Shown: piece by piece, positions 2,177-10,002 of the stretch
Numbering within the stretch: the first letter of the stretch is position 1
Layout: every line of letters begins with the position of its first letter
Virus record (IMG/VR): IMGVR_UViG_3300032304_001269
Span: 1 to 10,066 of that record
DNA from: a virus
Lineage: Duplodnaviria; Heunggongvirae; Uroviricota; Caudoviricetes
Length of the DNA stretch: 10,066 nucleotides
Reading direction: 5' to 3' (one strand)
The notes under the pieces: generated by a model
Seen by the model: only the letters and a program-made list of their open reading frames with translations
Told to the model about the DNA's origin: nothing
Database searches by the model: none
Translations under genes and position numbers: made by a program

Positions 2177-2661
2177 AGATCACGGAAATCATCACGGAAA
2201 ACATATTCACCTGCGACTACCGAGCAGTCATGGACGCTGTGGCTGCACTGTATCAAGAACACTATGATGTCAACATATGGAACAATGCAGAAGCACATGA
2301 TCAAGCAGCCCAGGTCTTGATGAAAGAGCATCCCACCCAAGAAGAGCTGGAGTTCATCATAGACACACAAGAATTACCAGAACGATTCCAAGAACTCAAC
2401 TTCCCCCTCAACGACGGCATACTGTTGGGCCTGGAACCTCAGGACACAGAGGTCACAGAACAGCCTGCCAGTCGCGATCTCTGCACATCAGGCAAGCCAG
2501 ACTCAGCCCTGGGTGCCTCACAGCTGAGCTCATGCAAGAGCCAGGGCTATCGCAGCCGAGAGGGTGCTAAGTCACACAAGGTGGGTACAGAACGCATACG
2601 CATGCGTGGCAAGAAAATCAAGGGCAAGAAGTACGGGGGTCCCTTGCCTGATTGGTCATAA
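2173..2661 (+). CDS. Putative virion-internal protein: acidic N-domain plus basic C-domain (162 aa; start 2173)
   Basis: ATGA overlap with the upstream stop. N-terminus MKITEIITE. 21 D/E vs 4 K/R in the first ~97 aa; 15 K/R vs 5 D/E in the last ~65 aa. Confidence 0.8.
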   Translation: MKITEIITENIFTCDYRAVMDAVAALYQEHYDVNIWNNAEAHDQAAQVLMKEHPTQEELEFIIDTQELPERFQELNFPLNDGILLGLEPQDTEVTEQPASRDLCTSGKPDSALGASQLSSCKSQGYRSREGAKSHKVGTERIRMRGKKIKGKKYGGPLPDWS

Positions 2662-2666
2662 GCTGC

Positions 2667-3212
2667 ATGGTCAAAGTCACTGATCTACTCATAGCCCCAC
2701 CCCAGATGCCCGACCCCCGATTCCGGGACACAGTGCTGATGATCACTGCCCACAGTACCGTGGGCTCACGAGCAGTGTGTGTGAATCGACCCTTGGGTGT
2801 GACCCTGGATCAAGTGTTGCAGGGTCACCCATGGTCACTGCCCCCTACCCCCGTGTACTGGGGTGGCCCTGTTAACACCCACAGCCTTTGGATGATACAC
2901 AGCACAGACTGGCTGTGCGATTACAGTCAACAGCTGTCAGAGTCTTGGGCAGTGACCAGCCATGCACACATGCTGGATCAACTCACAGAGCCCGGGGGTC
3001 CTAGATACAGCAGATTCGTTTTGGGTCACGCTGGGTGGGCCCCAGGACAACTACAGGCTGAGCTAGAGGGTGCTCAGGGATGGTCACAGTCGCAGTCATG
3101 GCTGACTGCAGATAATCTAGGAGTGGAGTGGCTGTTGGAGCAGAGCGTTGAAGATGTTTGGAACAACACTATTACTGTCAGTTGTCATCAGGCAGTCGAT
3201 AGTTGGCTTTGA
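2667..3212 (+). CDS. yqgE: YqgE/AlgH family protein (DUF179), 181 aa
   Basis: Family motifs LLIAPPxMxDPxFxxTV, NRP, VYWGGPV, LGxAGWAPGQLxxEL and WL, in the correct order. ATG at 2667, 5 nt after the upstream stop. Confidence 0.9.
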   Translation: MVKVTDLLIAPPQMPDPRFRDTVLMITAHSTVGSRAVCVNRPLGVTLDQVLQGHPWSLPPTPVYWGGPVNTHSLWMIHSTDWLCDYSQQLSESWAVTSHAHMLDQLTEPGGPRYSRFVLGHAGWAPGQLQAELEGAQGWSQSQSWLTADNLGVEWLLEQSVEDVWNNTITVSCHQAVDSWL

Positions 3213-4768: not shown

Positions 4769-4971
4769 ACTGGATGATCCAACCCAAAATAAGCTTCTTT
4801 CAAACTCTGTGCCGCACCTGCGTGACCTGTGTTGATCAGGGTCTGCGCACAGTCTTGAATCATTAACTTAGAGAACTTTTGTGTGTCAAAATGCAGGTGT
4901 CCATCAATCAGCACACCGTTGATATAATGGCTCCAGCACTGTTTTTCAAGTTCTTGAATTCTTTGGTTCAA
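4765..4971 (-). CDS. Hypothetical protein (68 aa, TTG start), paralogue C
   Basis: MNQRIQEL...FSKLMIQDCA...LKEAYFGLD; TTGA overlap with the ligase stop. Confidence 0.8.
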   Translation of the reverse strand: MNQRIQELEKQCWSHYINGVLIDGHLHFDTQKFSKLMIQDCAQTLINTGHAGAAQSLKEAYFGLDHPV

Positions 4972-6287
4972 ATCTTTTCCCCTGCTTTGAAGCCACGGAA
5001 TCTCATGAACCTAGGAAAACGTAGGCTGTAGGTACCGTCTTGATTCTGTGTGACTGCATCTGCTCTGACTTCGATCACCTGCCCAATCAAGCTATCACGA
5101 CTGTCCCAATATTCTCGGCGATCGCTGTCTGTGAATCCAGAGCCTACATTGACCTTGATGAGTTTGTCATCGTCTGTGCCTTCACAGATCACAGCACCTA
5201 ACCTGCCCACATTACGGCCAGTACCTTCTTCTACTGCAACGATCTGAAGACTCACTTCAATGAAAGGCTTTTGTTTGAGCCAAGCCACGCTTCGCTTGCC
5301 TTCCCATTTGCCGTTAGGGTCTTTGATCATTATGCCTTCATAGCCTGCGGCCACTGCCTGTTTGTTGTAGTCACGGAATTCAATTTCATCAGTGAACACA
5401 TCTAGATCAAACTCTCGTTGTGCAATGATCTCAATACAGCCTGAGTCTGCAAACAATTTGGAAAAGTTCTCACGCAGGAAAGCACTTCTACGCCTCTGGC
5501 CCATTGCACTAGCCCCTGCTTTGAACTCAGTCAACGGCACAATATCAAACAACATCAGTCGGGCATCTTGTGCCTGTACGTCACTCTTTCTGTGTACCTG
5601 CTTCATTAGGTCTTGGAACGAGTTTGAAATCACCTCTCCGTCGAACACATAACTGCGTCCCCAATTGTCCATGTTGTCTTCAAAGGCCTTGACGATATGC
5701 GGAAAGTTAACCAATGCTTTGCCATTGCGAGTGTACATGGTAACTGTACGGCTTTCGTAGTCTACCACAGTAAGTACACGCACACCATCTAGCTTGGGCT
5801 CAACCAGTTTCTTGCCTGTGATCTTGCCTTCGTGATTGGCACCATCATGAGCCAGCATGCATTCAAACACAGGCACAGAGTACTGAGGCTTCTTAGACTT
5901 CTTGGCCACGGTGTTCACTGTCTTTTCTGAAACACCACAACGTAGGTCTTTGATAAGAATCCTACGATAAAATCCATTCCATTGTTCTTTAGTAGCCACA
6001 TCCATAGCTAATTTAATAGCATCACGTGCGGCATGACCTGTGAGTGTTCTACGGTAAAGAGCATCTGCAAGTTCTGAGAAGTTAGTCCAGCTCAGGCCCT
6101 GGCCATCTACTTCACTCTCTGGAACCTGCTTGACACCAAAAGTGTGCAATTTGTCCAAACACCAGCGAACTCCTTCAAAGAATTCATCTAGGCCTTCTGT
6201 CATGGCTTCTGCAAGGATAGCTTCTTTGGCCAAACGGCTGTTGTCTGCTTCAAGTCGGGCAATAACTGCTTGTGGTTGTGTTCTCAT
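4968..6287 (-). CDS. lig: ATP-dependent DNA ligase (439 aa)
   Basis: Motif I EPKLDGVR (adenylated Lys), FDGE, FDIV, EGIMIK, WLKQK and OB-domain VGSGFTD...SLRFPRF. AGGAG RBS at 6294-6298. Confidence 0.97.
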   Translation of the reverse strand: MRTQPQAVIARLEADNSRLAKEAILAEAMTEGLDEFFEGVRWCLDKLHTFGVKQVPESEVDGQGLSWTNFSELADALYRRTLTGHAARDAIKLAMDVATKEQWNGFYRRILIKDLRCGVSEKTVNTVAKKSKKPQYSVPVFECMLAHDGANHEGKITGKKLVEPKLDGVRVLTVVDYESRTVTMYTRNGKALVNFPHIVKAFEDNMDNWGRSYVFDGEVISNSFQDLMKQVHRKSDVQAQDARLMLFDIVPLTEFKAGASAMGQRRRSAFLRENFSKLFADSGCIEIIAQREFDLDVFTDEIEFRDYNKQAVAAGYEGIMIKDPNGKWEGKRSVAWLKQKPFIEVSLQIVAVEEGTGRNVGRLGAVICEGTDDDKLIKVNVGSGFTDSDRREYWDSRDSLIGQVIEVRADAVTQNQDGTYSLRFPRFMRFRGFKAGEKI

Positions 6288-6317
6288 CTTCTGCTCCTAA
6301 TCTGTTACAATGCTAAT

Positions 6318-6346
6318 ATTATAGCATCAAACTGTAGAGTTGTCAA
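6318..6346 (-). promoter_or_regulatory. Consensus sigma70-type promoter for the ligase operon
   Basis: TTGACA (6346-6341), N17, TATAAT (6323-6318). The -35 box lies within the last codons of the HNH ORF. Confidence 0.9.
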
Positions 6347-6821
6347 GAGATATATTGTAACTGTCTGCAGTAATCAGCAGGGCTTCTTTTAGAGTTTCGT
6401 CGTTGAAGTTTTGACGTATGATATTTGCCACTTTCGGACGAATGATGCAGTTATCAAATGTCCATTCTCCACCATAGCTTTTTGGTATTATGTGGTCAGC
6501 GTTAACAGTATGAAAATAATCATATTCATAGACGACCTCTGGATCAAGATCTCTAAATTGATTAATCATTTTGTTTGCGCCCCGGCCGTAATCTAAGAGA
6601 TGTCCCCTAAAGCTGACAGGCATCTTTTCAACCCATTGCTCGGGTGTGCCGCCTGACCATTTCTTCATAATAGAATATGCATAGTCATAACGCAGGTCAC
6701 GAGTTTCTGCAACCTTTCTATAACTAGCAGCACACCAATAGGTCTTGCGATCAAACACAGCACCAGTTTGAAGCTGGCGCTGTTGTATCAATCCGTTAAT
6801 TAACTCTGTGTGTTTAAGCAT
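6327..6821 (-). CDS. HNH (beta-beta-alpha-Me) endonuclease (164 aa)
   Basis: DHIIPKSYGG-x5-N-x8-N (D109, H110, N124, N133), no CxxC pairs. 8-nt overlap with the upstream stop. Confidence 0.85.
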   Translation of the reverse strand: MLKHTELINGLIQQRQLQTGAVFDRKTYWCAASYRKVAETRDLRYDYAYSIMKKWSGGTPEQWVEKMPVSFRGHLLDYGRGANKMINQFRDLDPEVVYEYDYFHTVNADHIIPKSYGGEWTFDNCIIRPKVANIIRQNFNDETLKEALLITADSYNISLDNSTV

Positions 6822-8190
6822 TTTTAATCACAGGCATCGTTAATGGAAATACCATTTTGGTTTCTACAGAATAAGGCTGCACTAGTTGTGTTGCATATTC
6901 TTTAGGTAGACGCTGGTTAAGAACAGAGTAAAATCCTTGAGCGATCCACATGTGTTTTGCAATACGTGTAGAGTCTACAGAATAGAACTTAACATTCTTT
7001 TCTTTATCTTCCTTGGTCTTATAAGGAAACTGTTCACTCATCTCGTCTTGGATCTGACGCCAAGCAGGAGTAGATCCCTTGCCGCTGGTCTTGTTAGGCC
7101 ATTGTTCACGCAGAGCATTCATTAACTTAACCTGGAACAAGTCTTTGTCAAAGTCCTTTTCAAAGATCCAGTCCTTATTAAAATAGATTGTTTCAACTAA
7201 CCCGATCAAGTCAGCAGTTTCTAACCGCTTCAACGGCCAGATATACTCGTACCAATCAAGAGCAAGAGTTAAAATATCGTCACTATATGCATTAGTTTCA
7301 AAGATTGCTTTGAGCTGACTGATATTAGAACAAGCTCCTTTAAGGTTCTTTTCTTCCTTGTTCTCGTCATTAACCATACGGAAGTTTCTTTTTAGACTGA
7401 GCTCATTAAAGATCTTAAAGTTGACAAACTCGTCATCACTCTTGCTAAGTTGCATCTGTTTACAAACTTCTGCGTAACTGATCTCAGTGATATCGATTTT
7501 CTTCTTAATACAATAATCTTCAAGGCTTTTCTTAACAACCAATGCATCACTGAGTGCAAGTTCTACTTCAGTAGCACGAAGCTTGCCTTGATTCTCACGC
7601 TTGAACTGACGAAGGTCGTCGATGTCGTCTGAGCTAGGTAATACTTCGTATGCAAATTCTGTTCGACTTACAATACACCCTGCAATACTACGCTGTTGCC
7701 CCTCGTTAACAAACACTCGATTATCTGTAGGATCTAATCGAGCATTGCCGCAGGTAAGACCATCTGGATCCCATCGACGCAGCATTTGCAGAATATGGCG
7801 AGGCTTAGGATTACGTTGACCTCCTTGACCATCTTCACCGTAGTTCAACCAAATATCTCGAATAGGAAGTTTTTCTACACCCTTCAAACGGCTCTTGCGT
7901 TCTTCAAACGGCAGAAGTATTCCGTCAAGAACTCCTGTTGATTTATAATGTGTAAGGACTTCTTCAACTACACGCTGAAGATTTTCGTTTTCTTTGTTGA
8001 TTGGTAATTCAGCTAGAACCTTGTGCTTGTCCATATGTGCATCAAGTTCTGCTTCGCTGAAATCTTGCAGTCGACGTTTGATAGTTGATTTGTCTGTAGG
8101 AATAACTTTGGTTACATCACTGAGCCAAGTACCAAAACTACGGAAGTGATGTTCTTTTTCTACAGGATTGAATGTGTTTGCTGTTGCCAT
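6814..8190 (-). CDS. ParB/Srx-fold (DGQQR/DGQHR-like) domain protein (458 aa)
   Basis: QR(125-126)...W-D...V-F-V-N-E-G-Q-Q-R-S-I-A (GxxRxxA arginine patch, EGQQR at nt 7690-7704), followed by FxxxN. The rest is unassigned. Confidence 0.7.
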   Translation of the reverse strand: MATANTFNPVEKEHHFRSFGTWLSDVTKVIPTDKSTIKRRLQDFSEAELDAHMDKHKVLAELPINKENENLQRVVEEVLTHYKSTGVLDGILLPFEERKSRLKGVEKLPIRDIWLNYGEDGQGGQRNPKPRHILQMLRRWDPDGLTCGNARLDPTDNRVFVNEGQQRSIAGCIVSRTEFAYEVLPSSDDIDDLRQFKRENQGKLRATEVELALSDALVVKKSLEDYCIKKKIDITEISYAEVCKQMQLSKSDDEFVNFKIFNELSLKRNFRMVNDENKEEKNLKGACSNISQLKAIFETNAYSDDILTLALDWYEYIWPLKRLETADLIGLVETIYFNKDWIFEKDFDKDLFQVKLMNALREQWPNKTSGKGSTPAWRQIQDEMSEQFPYKTKEDKEKNVKFYSVDSTRIAKHMWIAQGFYSVLNQRLPKEYATQLVQPYSVETKMVFPLTMPVIKNA

Positions 8191-8230
8191 TTAATTGCCT
8201 TTCGTTGCCTTAAAAATAAATCCTAGCTAT

Positions 8231-8259
8231 AGTATAGTACAGCTAGGGTTATTTGTCAA
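8231..8259 (-). promoter_or_regulatory. sigma70-type promoter for the ParB-fold/HNH pair
   Basis: TTGACA (8259-8254), N17, TATACT (8236-8231). Confidence 0.85.
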
Positions 8260-8267
8260 CCATTTAA

Positions 8268-9416
8268 TTAACCAAAATCAAATAGTGTATCGAATTGGTT
8301 ATCTGCTTGTGCCATAGCGCCGTAATCTGTGCGCTCATGTACTTCACGAGGTACAAACAACCTGTCCATGTATTTTGGAATCTGTTGATGCGTCATTCCA
8401 ATATCCTTGCCAAAGAACAAACCTTGTTGGGCTTCGTTGGCAGGCTTACGCACAGCACAGACACAGACATAGTCACGCTCTGCAAAGAAGTCGTACAGGG
8501 CCTGCGGATCGTATCCATATTGCTTACATTGTTTGGGCACGATCTCAACCTGCACTGCGGGTCTATACTTGTCTATAGTGTCCTTGGCTCCGTGGATGAC
8601 AAATAGTTCTGAACCTTCCACATCTATTTTGATTGTGTCAACATCTTCAAAGGCAAAACTATCAATGGTTCTTGCAGAAACATTGACCACATGCTGAGAC
8701 TTCTTAACATGTGCATCGTCGTAGACTGCAAAGTTATGTCCGCCGTGTTCAGGATGATCCTGAATGCCAATAGTGCCTGTGTTGCGATTGGTTACTGCTA
8801 CTTCATGCACAGTGATCTGTCCATGTAGGTTCATGCTCTGCGGAACGCCTTTCCAGGTAAACCAACCAACTGTTGGTGTTGGATCTCTATGCACATTGCC
8901 TTGACTTTGATCACCCTGCCAGTAGATACCCTGCAGATTGCTTCTCCGAGCTATTTCGATATTGGCTTTCAGCATGGTCAGTGTAGTTGGCGTGGGTTCA
9001 AACGATTCTACGTGTTGTGCCCATTCTGCATAGGCAATGGTATTGTTACCTACATTAGCTCCTACATCTATAATGCGTCTTGCATTGGGATAGATGGTAC
9101 GGATCAATCTGCTGTTGTTGCCTTGATAGTAGACATTGACTCCACTGAACCTAGGTCCTTGTAGATTGTCGATGCTCAACAACCAATAGCATCTTCCAAA
9201 TTTGTTTATCACTAATCTAAACTTTGAATCTTTGTAAAGCCCGCTAGGCTCGTCAAAACCAAATAGGTCTTTGAATTCTTGTTCAGTGACAGTGGCTGTA
9301 ATTAATTGCGGCATACTAGTTCTCCTTCTAATAAATGTTCGCACTGGTTTGTAAATTGAAAACAGACTGTTGAAGATCTGTCGTTTGAGTTGGCGCTGGG
9401 CCTTTGATAGCATCAT
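8268..9416 (-). CDS. FkbM-family SAM-dependent methyltransferase (382 aa from 9416, or 348 aa from 9314)
   Basis: IIDVGANVG (SAM-binding), SFEP, IDSF and IKIDVEGSELxVxxGA motifs; two in-frame ATGs, each with AAGGAG. Confidence 0.92.
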   Translation of the reverse strand: MMLSKAQRQLKRQIFNSLFSIYKPVRTFIRRRTSMPQLITATVTEQEFKDLFGFDEPSGLYKDSKFRLVINKFGRCYWLLSIDNLQGPRFSGVNVYYQGNNSRLIRTIYPNARRIIDVGANVGNNTIAYAEWAQHVESFEPTPTTLTMLKANIEIARRSNLQGIYWQGDQSQGNVHRDPTPTVGWFTWKGVPQSMNLHGQITVHEVAVTNRNTGTIGIQDHPEHGGHNFAVYDDAHVKKSQHVVNVSARTIDSFAFEDVDTIKIDVEGSELFVIHGAKDTIDKYRPAVQVEIVPKQCKQYGYDPQALYDFFAERDYVCVCAVRKPANEAQQGLFFGKDIGMTHQQIPKYMDRLFVPREVHERTDYGAMAQADNQFDTLFDFG

Positions 9417-9489: not shown

Positions 9490-10002
9490 CTATCCCAAAT
9501 AATCTGCCCAGCTAGTATGTTGCAGGTGATATCCTCGAGCTCGACGCTTGGCAACTAGATCCCAAAATGTAGGTTTGTAAGGCATGATCTTTGGCTTCAT
9601 CTTGCCTACATGTGCTGCTTTCTTGTAGTTACAGGTCTTGCAGGCAGTGGTAGAGTTTTCCCAAGTGGTCTTGCCGCCCAGACTCACCGGATGCACGTGA
9701 TCCAATGTGGCTGTGACTTCTGTGACTGTTGTGCCACAGTACTGGCAGGCATAGGCATCACGCAGAAATATGTTGCGTTTACTCAACCTCATAGTATGCT
9801 TGGGTTTTTGATATGTGGTCAGCATGATCACAGCAGGTACACGGGTCTGCCATCTGGCACTGTGGACGATCCAATCTTCATACCATTCTAGGACTTTGAC
9901 CTTGTCCAGAACCATATATCGTATGGATTCCTGCCAATCTACCACACTCAAGGGTAATAGGCTTACAGGTTGCATGTCTGCGTTTAACAATAGTGTTGCC
10001 AT
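9490..10002 (-). CDS. McrA-like zinc-binding HNH endonuclease (170 aa)
   Basis: LLLNADxxP N-domain; NIFLRDxYxCQYCG...LDHVHPVSLGG...WEN...ACxxCNxKK. Confidence 0.95.
   Translation of the reverse strand: MATLLLNADMQPVSLLPLSVVDWQESIRYMVLDKVKVLEWYEDWIVHSARWQTRVPAVIMLTTYQKPKHTMRLSKRNIFLRDAYACQYCGTTVTEVTATLDHVHPVSLGGKTTWENSTTACKTCNYKKAAHVGKMKPKIMPYKPTFWDLVAKRRARGYHLQHTSWADYLG

Follow-up and report, generated by a model that had tools for sequence, protein, structure and literature searches.

We analysed a stretch of viral DNA of 10,066 nucleotides (nt), here called the window, which forms the first 10 kb of the 74-kb IMG/VR record IMGVR_UViG_3300032304_001269 and carries on its minus strand two genes for proteins of 458 and 164 amino acids (aa), P0001 and P0002, hereafter the large and the small protein. 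A preliminary description of this DNA had proposed that the two genes form a nucleotide-gated nuclease system, in which a ParB/Srx-fold protein is coupled to an HNH nuclease. Both open reading frames (ORFs) exist, with an overlap of 8 nt, and the motifs picked out in them are present: GGQR (residues 123-126), RRWD and EGQQRSIA (163-170) in the large protein, and DHIIPKSYGG...DN...AN, including H110, in the small protein, which contains just two cysteines and hence no zinc ribbon. Homologues form 34 clusters for the large protein and 23 for the small protein, with invariant motif columns, and the ratio of nonsynonymous to synonymous substitution rates (dN/dS) of the pair is 0.017-0.06 against relatives of the same class, indicating strong purifying selection. 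Judged from these sequences, both genes are real and under selection. The pair is found in one copy per genome, including a 98%-complete relative of 353 kb. Its main new feature is that it represents one of at least six interchangeable cassette classes, which occupy a fixed locus beside a conserved FkbM methyltransferase gene.

The large protein belongs to a family of its own, as had been suspected, and matches no Pfam (E up to 1), PHROG, PADLOC or NCBIfam model. All 34 homologue clusters, defined at 90% identity, are metagenomic, and a profile search of 1.84 billion representatives recovered only 32 proteins. An AlphaFold2 model was built from a 26-sequence alignment (A1, extending down to 38% identity) and reached a predicted local distance difference test score (pLDDT) of 88. 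Structure comparison and Foldseek both place residues 103-204 of this model in the predicted ParB/Srx fold. Among 48,161 solved chains, the seven best matches are all ParB/Srx-fold proteins over residues 103-204 (Z 5.0-7.0), headed by KorB (Z 7.0, 92 aa, root-mean-square deviation (rmsd) 2.4) and including PadC (Z 6.8), sulfiredoxins (5.5-5.6), the serine kinase SerK (5.5), Atu1540 (5.0) and pNOB8 ParB-N (Z 6.4 over 212 residues), the only one of the seven that aligns beyond this segment. Foldseek ranked ParB/Noc first (E about 4e-3, prob 1.00), with a top 30 made up of ParB, Noc, KorB, PadC and Srx proteins, and matches of the helix-turn-helix (HTH) type cover residues 205-270. The nearest shapes in the ESM Atlas are hypothetical phage proteins and DUF6551 clusters; a DUF6551 cluster aligns over 258 aa within residues 104-447, with a template modelling (TM) score of 0.45 by query and 0.67 by target. 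A PDB sequence search with A1 returned chance G-alpha matches only.

Within this fold, three groups of residues are invariant in A1: G123, G124, Q125 and R126; E163 to R167 (EGQQR); and E199, N200, K203 and L204 (EN..KL). We assign GGQR, EGQQR and EN..KL to ParB boxes I, II and III, respectively, an assignment based on the known ParB motifs and not on a residue-level structural alignment. On the same basis, the spacing of the boxes is similar to that of ParB (B. subtilis Spo0J numbering).

The small protein was examined in the same manner. Its own alignment (A2) shows D109, H110, P113, N124 and N133 to be invariant, together with a YGxGxNK motif, and H110, N124 and N133 stay invariant when all classes are aligned (A5). 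Sub-threshold matches to HNH, HNH_4 or HNH_5 fall on one shared stretch of the window's small protein, of its counterparts at L022, L026, L028 and L040, and of a distant relative, P0074. In addition, the protein matches a PHROG endonuclease VII family (3.7e-5), and the all-class profile matches Cas9 HNH domains at the stretch that holds the HNH motif (E 0.009). PADLOC and NCBIfam gave no match for the small protein, whose structure model has a pLDDT of 86.7. By its sequence, the small protein probably carries an HNH-type active site, a conclusion that falls short of proof.

Related loci were collected through the FkbM methyltransferase, which yielded 37 viral loci, 26 of them non-redundant. 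The methyltransferase gene is followed by a gene for a 441-563-aa protein and one for a 153-206-aa protein in all 26, and wherever a locus has enough flank, the small gene overlaps, abuts or closely trails the large one. Co-occurrence of the two genes, which the preliminary description had singled out as a check, is therefore obligate, since they are adjacent in all loci examined. The identities of the large and small proteins also co-vary (rho 0.75 over 325 locus pairs) and no locus mixes classes. Because both genes always occur together, the small gene is not a free-standing homing HNH gene, a possibility that had been raised against the pairing. Further away, the motif of the large protein reads DGQHR or DAQHR, and two distant relatives, P0049 (DGQHR) and P0052, both have an HNH gene downstream. 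In another large phage, a single fused protein (P0061) joins a DUF6551-like N-terminal part to a C-terminal HNH domain that passes the Pfam threshold; its matches to PF20188 (22.2 vs 26.8 bits) and TIGR03187 (19.6 vs 58.85) are sub-threshold. Complex prediction of the large and small proteins with alignments gave scores of 0.00, 0.69 and 0.00.

We next compared the pair with its surroundings across these loci. The methyltransferases are 61-97% identical, whereas the pair falls into at least six classes: the window's large protein shares 16-23% identity with those of the other five classes, and most classes share at most 24%. Profile comparison with hhalign linked the window's class to class C1 (probability 98.9, E 2e-17, 395 columns) and C1 to C3 (probability 99.6, E 2e-23); the direct comparison of A1 with C3 reached only E 0.015, so that homology between these two is established transitively through C1. 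On this sequence evidence, the classes are homologous over their whole length. When class labels were mapped on the methyltransferase tree, 12 changes were counted against a mean of 12.9 for shuffled labels, as expected if classes are scattered at random, and the identity of the large protein correlates little with that of the methyltransferase (rho 0.15). The window and its three nearest relatives, whose methyltransferases are 87-92% identical, represent four different classes.

Two loci illustrate the exchange. Between the window and L022, the methyltransferase (92%) and the ligase (91%) are well conserved, with a synonymous divergence (dS) of about 0.65 in the flanks, and the large and small proteins are 21% and 29% identical. 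Between the window and L024 the pattern is reversed: the methyltransferase is 79% and the ligase 85% identical, the large protein 99% and the small protein 96%, with a dS of about 1.7 in the flanks and about 0.5 in the cassette, where dN/dS is 0.017-0.03. It follows from these comparisons that the classes are old, that each is strongly constrained and that whole cassettes move between phage backbones.

The exchanged block has sharp limits. Against L022, blastn aligned the flanks at 85.5% identity and nothing within 6356-8267, homology ending at the methyltransferase stop codon (8268) and restarting at 6355, just upstream of a -35 hexamer located within the final part of the small gene; in the comparison with L024, the block has the same limits and is 92% identical, between flanks of about 75%. 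The upstream limit coincides with the promoter that had been proposed to serve the pair, and its existence is borne out: TTGACA and TATACT, 17 nt apart, match the sigma70-type consensus at 11 of 12 positions, and the site (8259-8231) is among the two best in a 3.4-kb region that holds 14 promoter-like sites with at least 9 of 12 matches, compared with 7.8 +/- 2.6 in shuffled sequences. A TTGAC[AT] -35 element with a -10, usually with a hairpin, recurs in the upstream intergenic region of 17 of 25 related loci, across classes. The window's hairpin overlaps the -10 and, with the T-run that follows it, looks like a terminator for the methyltransferase gene upstream. An operator function for this hairpin was considered and dropped, because the T-run marks it as a terminator and comparable hairpins occur in other classes. 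At the downstream limit, 19 of 25 loci, from several classes, have a promoter that spans the small-gene stop codon; in L022, L023 and L036 the -35 hexamer even includes the TGA stop codon. On both sides the breakpoints are found at terminator/promoter motifs, as in modules bounded by the composite terminator/early-promoter (PeSL) arrangement, through which T4-type phages are reported to shuffle modules (Arbiol et al., 2010, PMC2839356; Comeau et al., 2014, PMC4122927).

Lake metagenome contigs were also inspected around these boundaries. The cassette forms one unbranched unitig (6258-8220 in X1; 6302-8246 at 95% identity in X2 and X3), and in X1-X4 the ligase and methyltransferase flanks are broken into many short variants of higher summed depth. 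In X2, one contig connects 6346 with 8211; at 6251, several contigs diverge or have loose ends. The pattern is suggestive of population-level heterogeneity at the boundaries, too weakly so to count.

Features of the window around and within the two-gene cassette (positions in the 10,066-nt window)
Feature	Position	Strand	Remarks
Large-subunit gene (P0001, 458 aa)	6814-8190	minus	N-terminal extension 1-100, ParB/Srx fold 104-204, HTH-like helical part about 205-270, helical C-terminal domain
ParB/Srx-fold core, residues 104-204	7579-7881	minus	Box I G123-R126 (7813-7824), Box II E163-R167 (7690-7704), Box III E199-L204 (7579-7596)
Small-subunit gene (P0002, 164 aa), HNH-like	6327-6821	minus	8-nt overlap with the large gene
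HNH motif D109-H110...P113...N124...N133	6423-6497	minus	invariant in the small-protein alignment
Exchanged segment (promoter and both genes)	6356-8267	minus	from blastn against L022 and comparison with L024
Composite terminator/early promoter, upstream cassette boundary	8213-8259	minus	-35 TTGACA 8259-8254, -10 TATACT 8236-8231, hairpin 8247-8222 and T-run
TG-extended perfect TTGACA-17-TATAAT promoter, downstream cassette boundary	6318-6346	minus	straddles the small-gene stop codon; drives the ligase gene
FkbM-family methyltransferase gene (P0004)	8268-9416	minus	PF05050 E 2.7e-18 and TIGR01444; upstream neighbour, outside the swapped unit
ATP-dependent DNA ligase gene	4968-6287	minus	next gene after the 164-aa gene
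Canonical HNH endonuclease gene	9490-10002	minus	PF01844/PF14279 over threshold, PHROG 16726
AlgH-like (DUF179) gene	2652-3212	plus	E 5.9e-30; in a plus-strand block with higher G+C (0.53-0.57)

The pair lies among replication genes (ligase, clamp loader and exonuclease), and its neighbourhood varies between relatives. In L024 (8129-8488), L032 (8095-8613) and L004 (7732-8250), the small HNH gene is separated from the ligase gene by an extra ORF of 119-172 aa that belongs to no family; this ORF is absent from the window, where the gap measures 39 nt. The canonical HNH gene upstream of the methyltransferase keeps that place in some relatives and is found 4-5 kb downstream in L016, L026 and L037; since its position varies, this gene looks mobile in its own right. 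Beside ClpP, L004 (382-3333), L005 and L006 carry in a row genes for a PfkB kinase, a CTP_transf_like nucleotidyltransferase, a HAD/PNK3P phosphatase, a cupin and an NAD epimerase, which looks like a sugar-nucleotide pathway of the ADP-heptose type. In a distant clade member, the P0032 locus, genes for an S-adenosylmethionine (SAM) synthetase, a 5'-3' exonuclease, RNase T, QueD/PTPS and DUF3307 precede the block formed by the methyltransferase and the pair.

Outside these metagenomic phages, relatives of the pair were not recovered. Cultured phages in INPHARED gave no match to the window by megablast or to P0001 and P0052 by tblastn, and the fused protein P0061 found there one weak match, in Sinorhizobium phage Phosso, whose downstream gene lacks the HNH motif. 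A scan of GTDB genomes with class C1 patterns found no relative. As far as these searches reach, the family appears to be phage-only, and for this reason we do not regard it as a bacterial defence system, with which the preliminary description had compared it and for which PADLOC gave no match. Among cultured phages, the FkbM methyltransferase has no more than distant relatives (Caulobacter phages CcrPW and CcrSC, Pelagibacter phage Mosig).

The explanation we favour, and to which we give an even chance of being right, is that the two genes encode one two-part DNA nuclease, expressed early and acting as an exchangeable specificity module in DNA-level conflict. The large subunit would be a ParB/DndB-type protein, with an NTP-binding (nucleoside triphosphate) ParB/Srx core followed by HTH-like and helical domains, that recognises DNA and, in the window's class, probably binds and hydrolyses nucleotide. 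The small subunit would supply the HNH (beta-beta-alpha-metal) active site, and the large one would position or license it, presumably within a physical complex. Transcription would be early, from the pair's own sigma70-type promoter, with translation of the two genes coupled. On this model the pair is a cassette present only in phages, in one copy, within a hyperplastic region shared by a clade of T4-related, uncultured jumbo phages from fresh water, where at least six ancient and deeply divergent classes would displace each other through recombination within the flanking, conserved terminator/promoter motifs. Its likeliest role would be that of a specificity-determining nuclease directed against host DNA, co-infecting phages or satellites, different classes having different targets.

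Several observations weigh against this explanation. For the nuclease half, no HNH Pfam model reaches its gathering score on the small protein (HNH_5 20.5 vs 27.5 bits, HNH 16.5 vs 21.4), and fold searches with its model gave nothing (best Z 2.4, best Foldseek E 2), the motif being short relative to the chain. As for nucleotide control, only the window's class keeps both the canonical Box II arginine and the Box III EN: the arginine is shifted one position earlier in C3 and C6 and missing altogether from C1, C4 and C5, Box II reading DGxHG, EGRHG or DSQHA in other classes, and the EN is absent from all classes but the window's. Given that most sister classes lack the Box II arginine, NTP gating cannot be a general rule of the wider family; the residues present make it plausible in the window's class, and NTP control may be peculiar to this class or dispensable. 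In addition, a two-part nuclease leaves the conserved methyltransferase neighbour unexplained, and an essential housekeeping role would also account for the fact that all phages of the clade have the pair and keep it under very strong purifying selection.

An alternative that we consider unlikely, but take most seriously among those that follow, is that the cassette is a selfish homing-type element, in which a two-subunit homing endonuclease cuts genomes carrying a different cassette at or near the locus and is then copied in by repair (intronless homing or marker exclusion, as with the T4 Seg and Mob genes). Free-standing endonuclease genes are common in hyperplastic regions of T4-related phages, and here a cassette holding an HNH-like nuclease sits in such a region, close to a canonical HNH gene that does move around. 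The random scatter of classes on the methyltransferase tree and the low age of the cassette relative to its flanks in some pairs (dS 0.5 vs 1.7) would likewise be expected of a homing element. Homing genes are, however, typically sporadic and decaying, whereas this locus is never empty in the 26 non-redundant loci and its dN/dS of 0.02 reflects a stronger constraint than that on the ligase. Moreover, the breakpoints fall exactly at promoter motifs and no co-conversion tract extends into the genes on either side; recombination of the PeSL type explains this without cleavage.

A little less likely still is that the locus serves phage incompatibility or kin discrimination, with at least six ancient nuclease classes kept by frequency-dependent selection, each cutting genomes (of rival phages, satellites or host lineages) that another spares. 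If this were so, a single-step swap of the cassette would re-target the DNA weaponry of a phage.

We find it quite improbable that the pair is instead a housekeeping DNA-processing factor, whose ParB-like protein binds a class-specific cis site in its own genome and whose HNH protein nicks or cuts there to start replication or recombination, or which regulates early transcription as a KorB/DndB-like repressor. Such a role would accommodate the constant presence, single copy and strong constraint of the pair, its location among replication genes and the HTH-like matches of the large protein, and in other phages, too, replicon or immunity modules are exchanged as cassettes that carry specificity. 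Every exchange, however, would uncouple the pair from a cis site that lay outside the cassette, so that the site would need to be within the 1.9-kb segment; a class-specific repeated site was looked for only at the promoter hairpin, which reads as a terminator.

Lower again in our estimation is a modification or restriction-modification-like system involving the FkbM methyltransferase, in which either phage DNA is marked by the methyltransferase and DNA lacking the mark is cut by the pair, or access of the methyltransferase to DNA is aided by a ParB-like NTPase together with an HNH nickase, much as DpdB helps DpdA. DGQHR/ParB-like proteins do accompany the Dnd and Dpd modification systems, and the methyltransferase gene stands immediately upstream of the pair in every non-redundant locus. 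FkbM enzymes are known, however, as O-methyltransferases of sugars and small molecules and not of DNA, and neither a ThyA-type hydroxymethylase nor a tRNA-guanine transglycosylase (TGT) was found in G000, G001 and G002, which include the 98%-complete relative. Phage proteins often combine a ParB-fold domain with a methyltransferase in one chain (PMC12704722). The neighbouring enzyme is nonetheless probably not the specificity partner of the pair, because it has its own terminator and is transcribed separately, does not co-vary with the pair (rho 0.06-0.15), remaining at 61-97% identity across the different classes, and does not accompany the more distant pairs L008, L009 and L059.

Just as improbable is the version advanced in the preliminary description, a split type IV enzyme of the GmrSD/SspE type whose NTP-gated sensor directs cleavage of modified rival-phage DNA: the architecture agrees, the lack of hypermodification genes in the 353-kb relative means that the phage's own DNA may be unmodified, BrxU is among the structural matches (Z 4.2, 233 aa) and one Atlas neighbour cluster has PF03235 in 51% of its members (a lead only), but neither PF03235 (DUF262) nor PF07510 (DUF1524) matches even at E 1, BrxU superimposes with an rmsd of 8.8 and ranks below ParB, KorB, PadC and Srx, PADLOC is silent and the searches made recovered no member of the family from bacterial genomes.

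Should the pair indeed be a targeting nuclease, as we favour, it would bring to light a new level of conflict in lakes, between phage and host or between phages, in which the specificity-bearing parts are exchanged wholesale among otherwise near-identical giant phages. The classes would then provide a natural panel of at least six orthogonal ParB-like/HNH pairs, suited to asking how ParB folds read DNA and gate a nuclease. Whatever its target, the cassette offers a clean and datable case in which modules bounded by promoters are swapped in phages that lie outside the cultured T4 group.

Bacterial defence offers known examples of ParB-fold NTP switches that are coupled to nucleases, namely GmrSD (including BrxU, a GmrSD enzyme) and SspE; the phage side of such switches is catalogued but not understood. 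Like these systems, the pair would combine a ParB/Srx-fold NTP-binding module bearing xGQQR with a His-Me-finger nuclease, in fused or adjacent genes, and GmrS/GmrD also exists in a two-gene form. The analogy holds for architecture only and not for membership: the putative nuclease of the pair is nearer to classical HNH (the Cas9 HNH domain, endonuclease VII) than to DUF1524, and the pair is phage-only in the searches made, single-copy and at a fixed locus, with most sister classes devoid of the Box II arginine.

The CTP-switch (cytidine triphosphate) proteins ParB, KorB, Noc and PadC provide the best solved-structure matches of the large protein (Z 6.4-7.0), and they share with it all three boxes (QR, GxxR and EN..[KR].L) and an HTH-like region after the N-terminal domain. 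Unlike them, the large protein has no PF02195 match, ParA partner, ParA-binding motif or partition context, and is coupled to a putative nuclease. Nearest in shape in the Atlas are the ParB-CTPase-fold proteins of phages known as DUF6551 (PF20188) and DGQHR (TIGR03187, DndB-like). The large protein matches neither model, is about 170-200 aa longer, through its N-terminal extension and a larger helical C-terminal domain, and is always paired with a dedicated small HNH protein and polymorphic as a cassette. A recent survey of ParB-CTPase folds reported ATP or CTP binding by phage DUF6551 fusions and noted ParB-HNH fusions, to which no function was given (PNAS 2025, PMC12704722).

Two kinds of mobile module from T4-type phages complete the comparison. 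With free-standing homing endonuclease genes the pair shares a spread that is independent of the flanking genes, and it differs from them in not being sporadic. With PeSL-flanked modules it shares composite terminator/early-promoter motifs that bound a gene block replaced between close relatives in a hyperplastic region. Unlike the PeSL swaps described so far, in which mostly unrelated ORFans are exchanged, inserted or deleted, here a homologous two-gene function is kept in every genome and exchanged among ancient classes.

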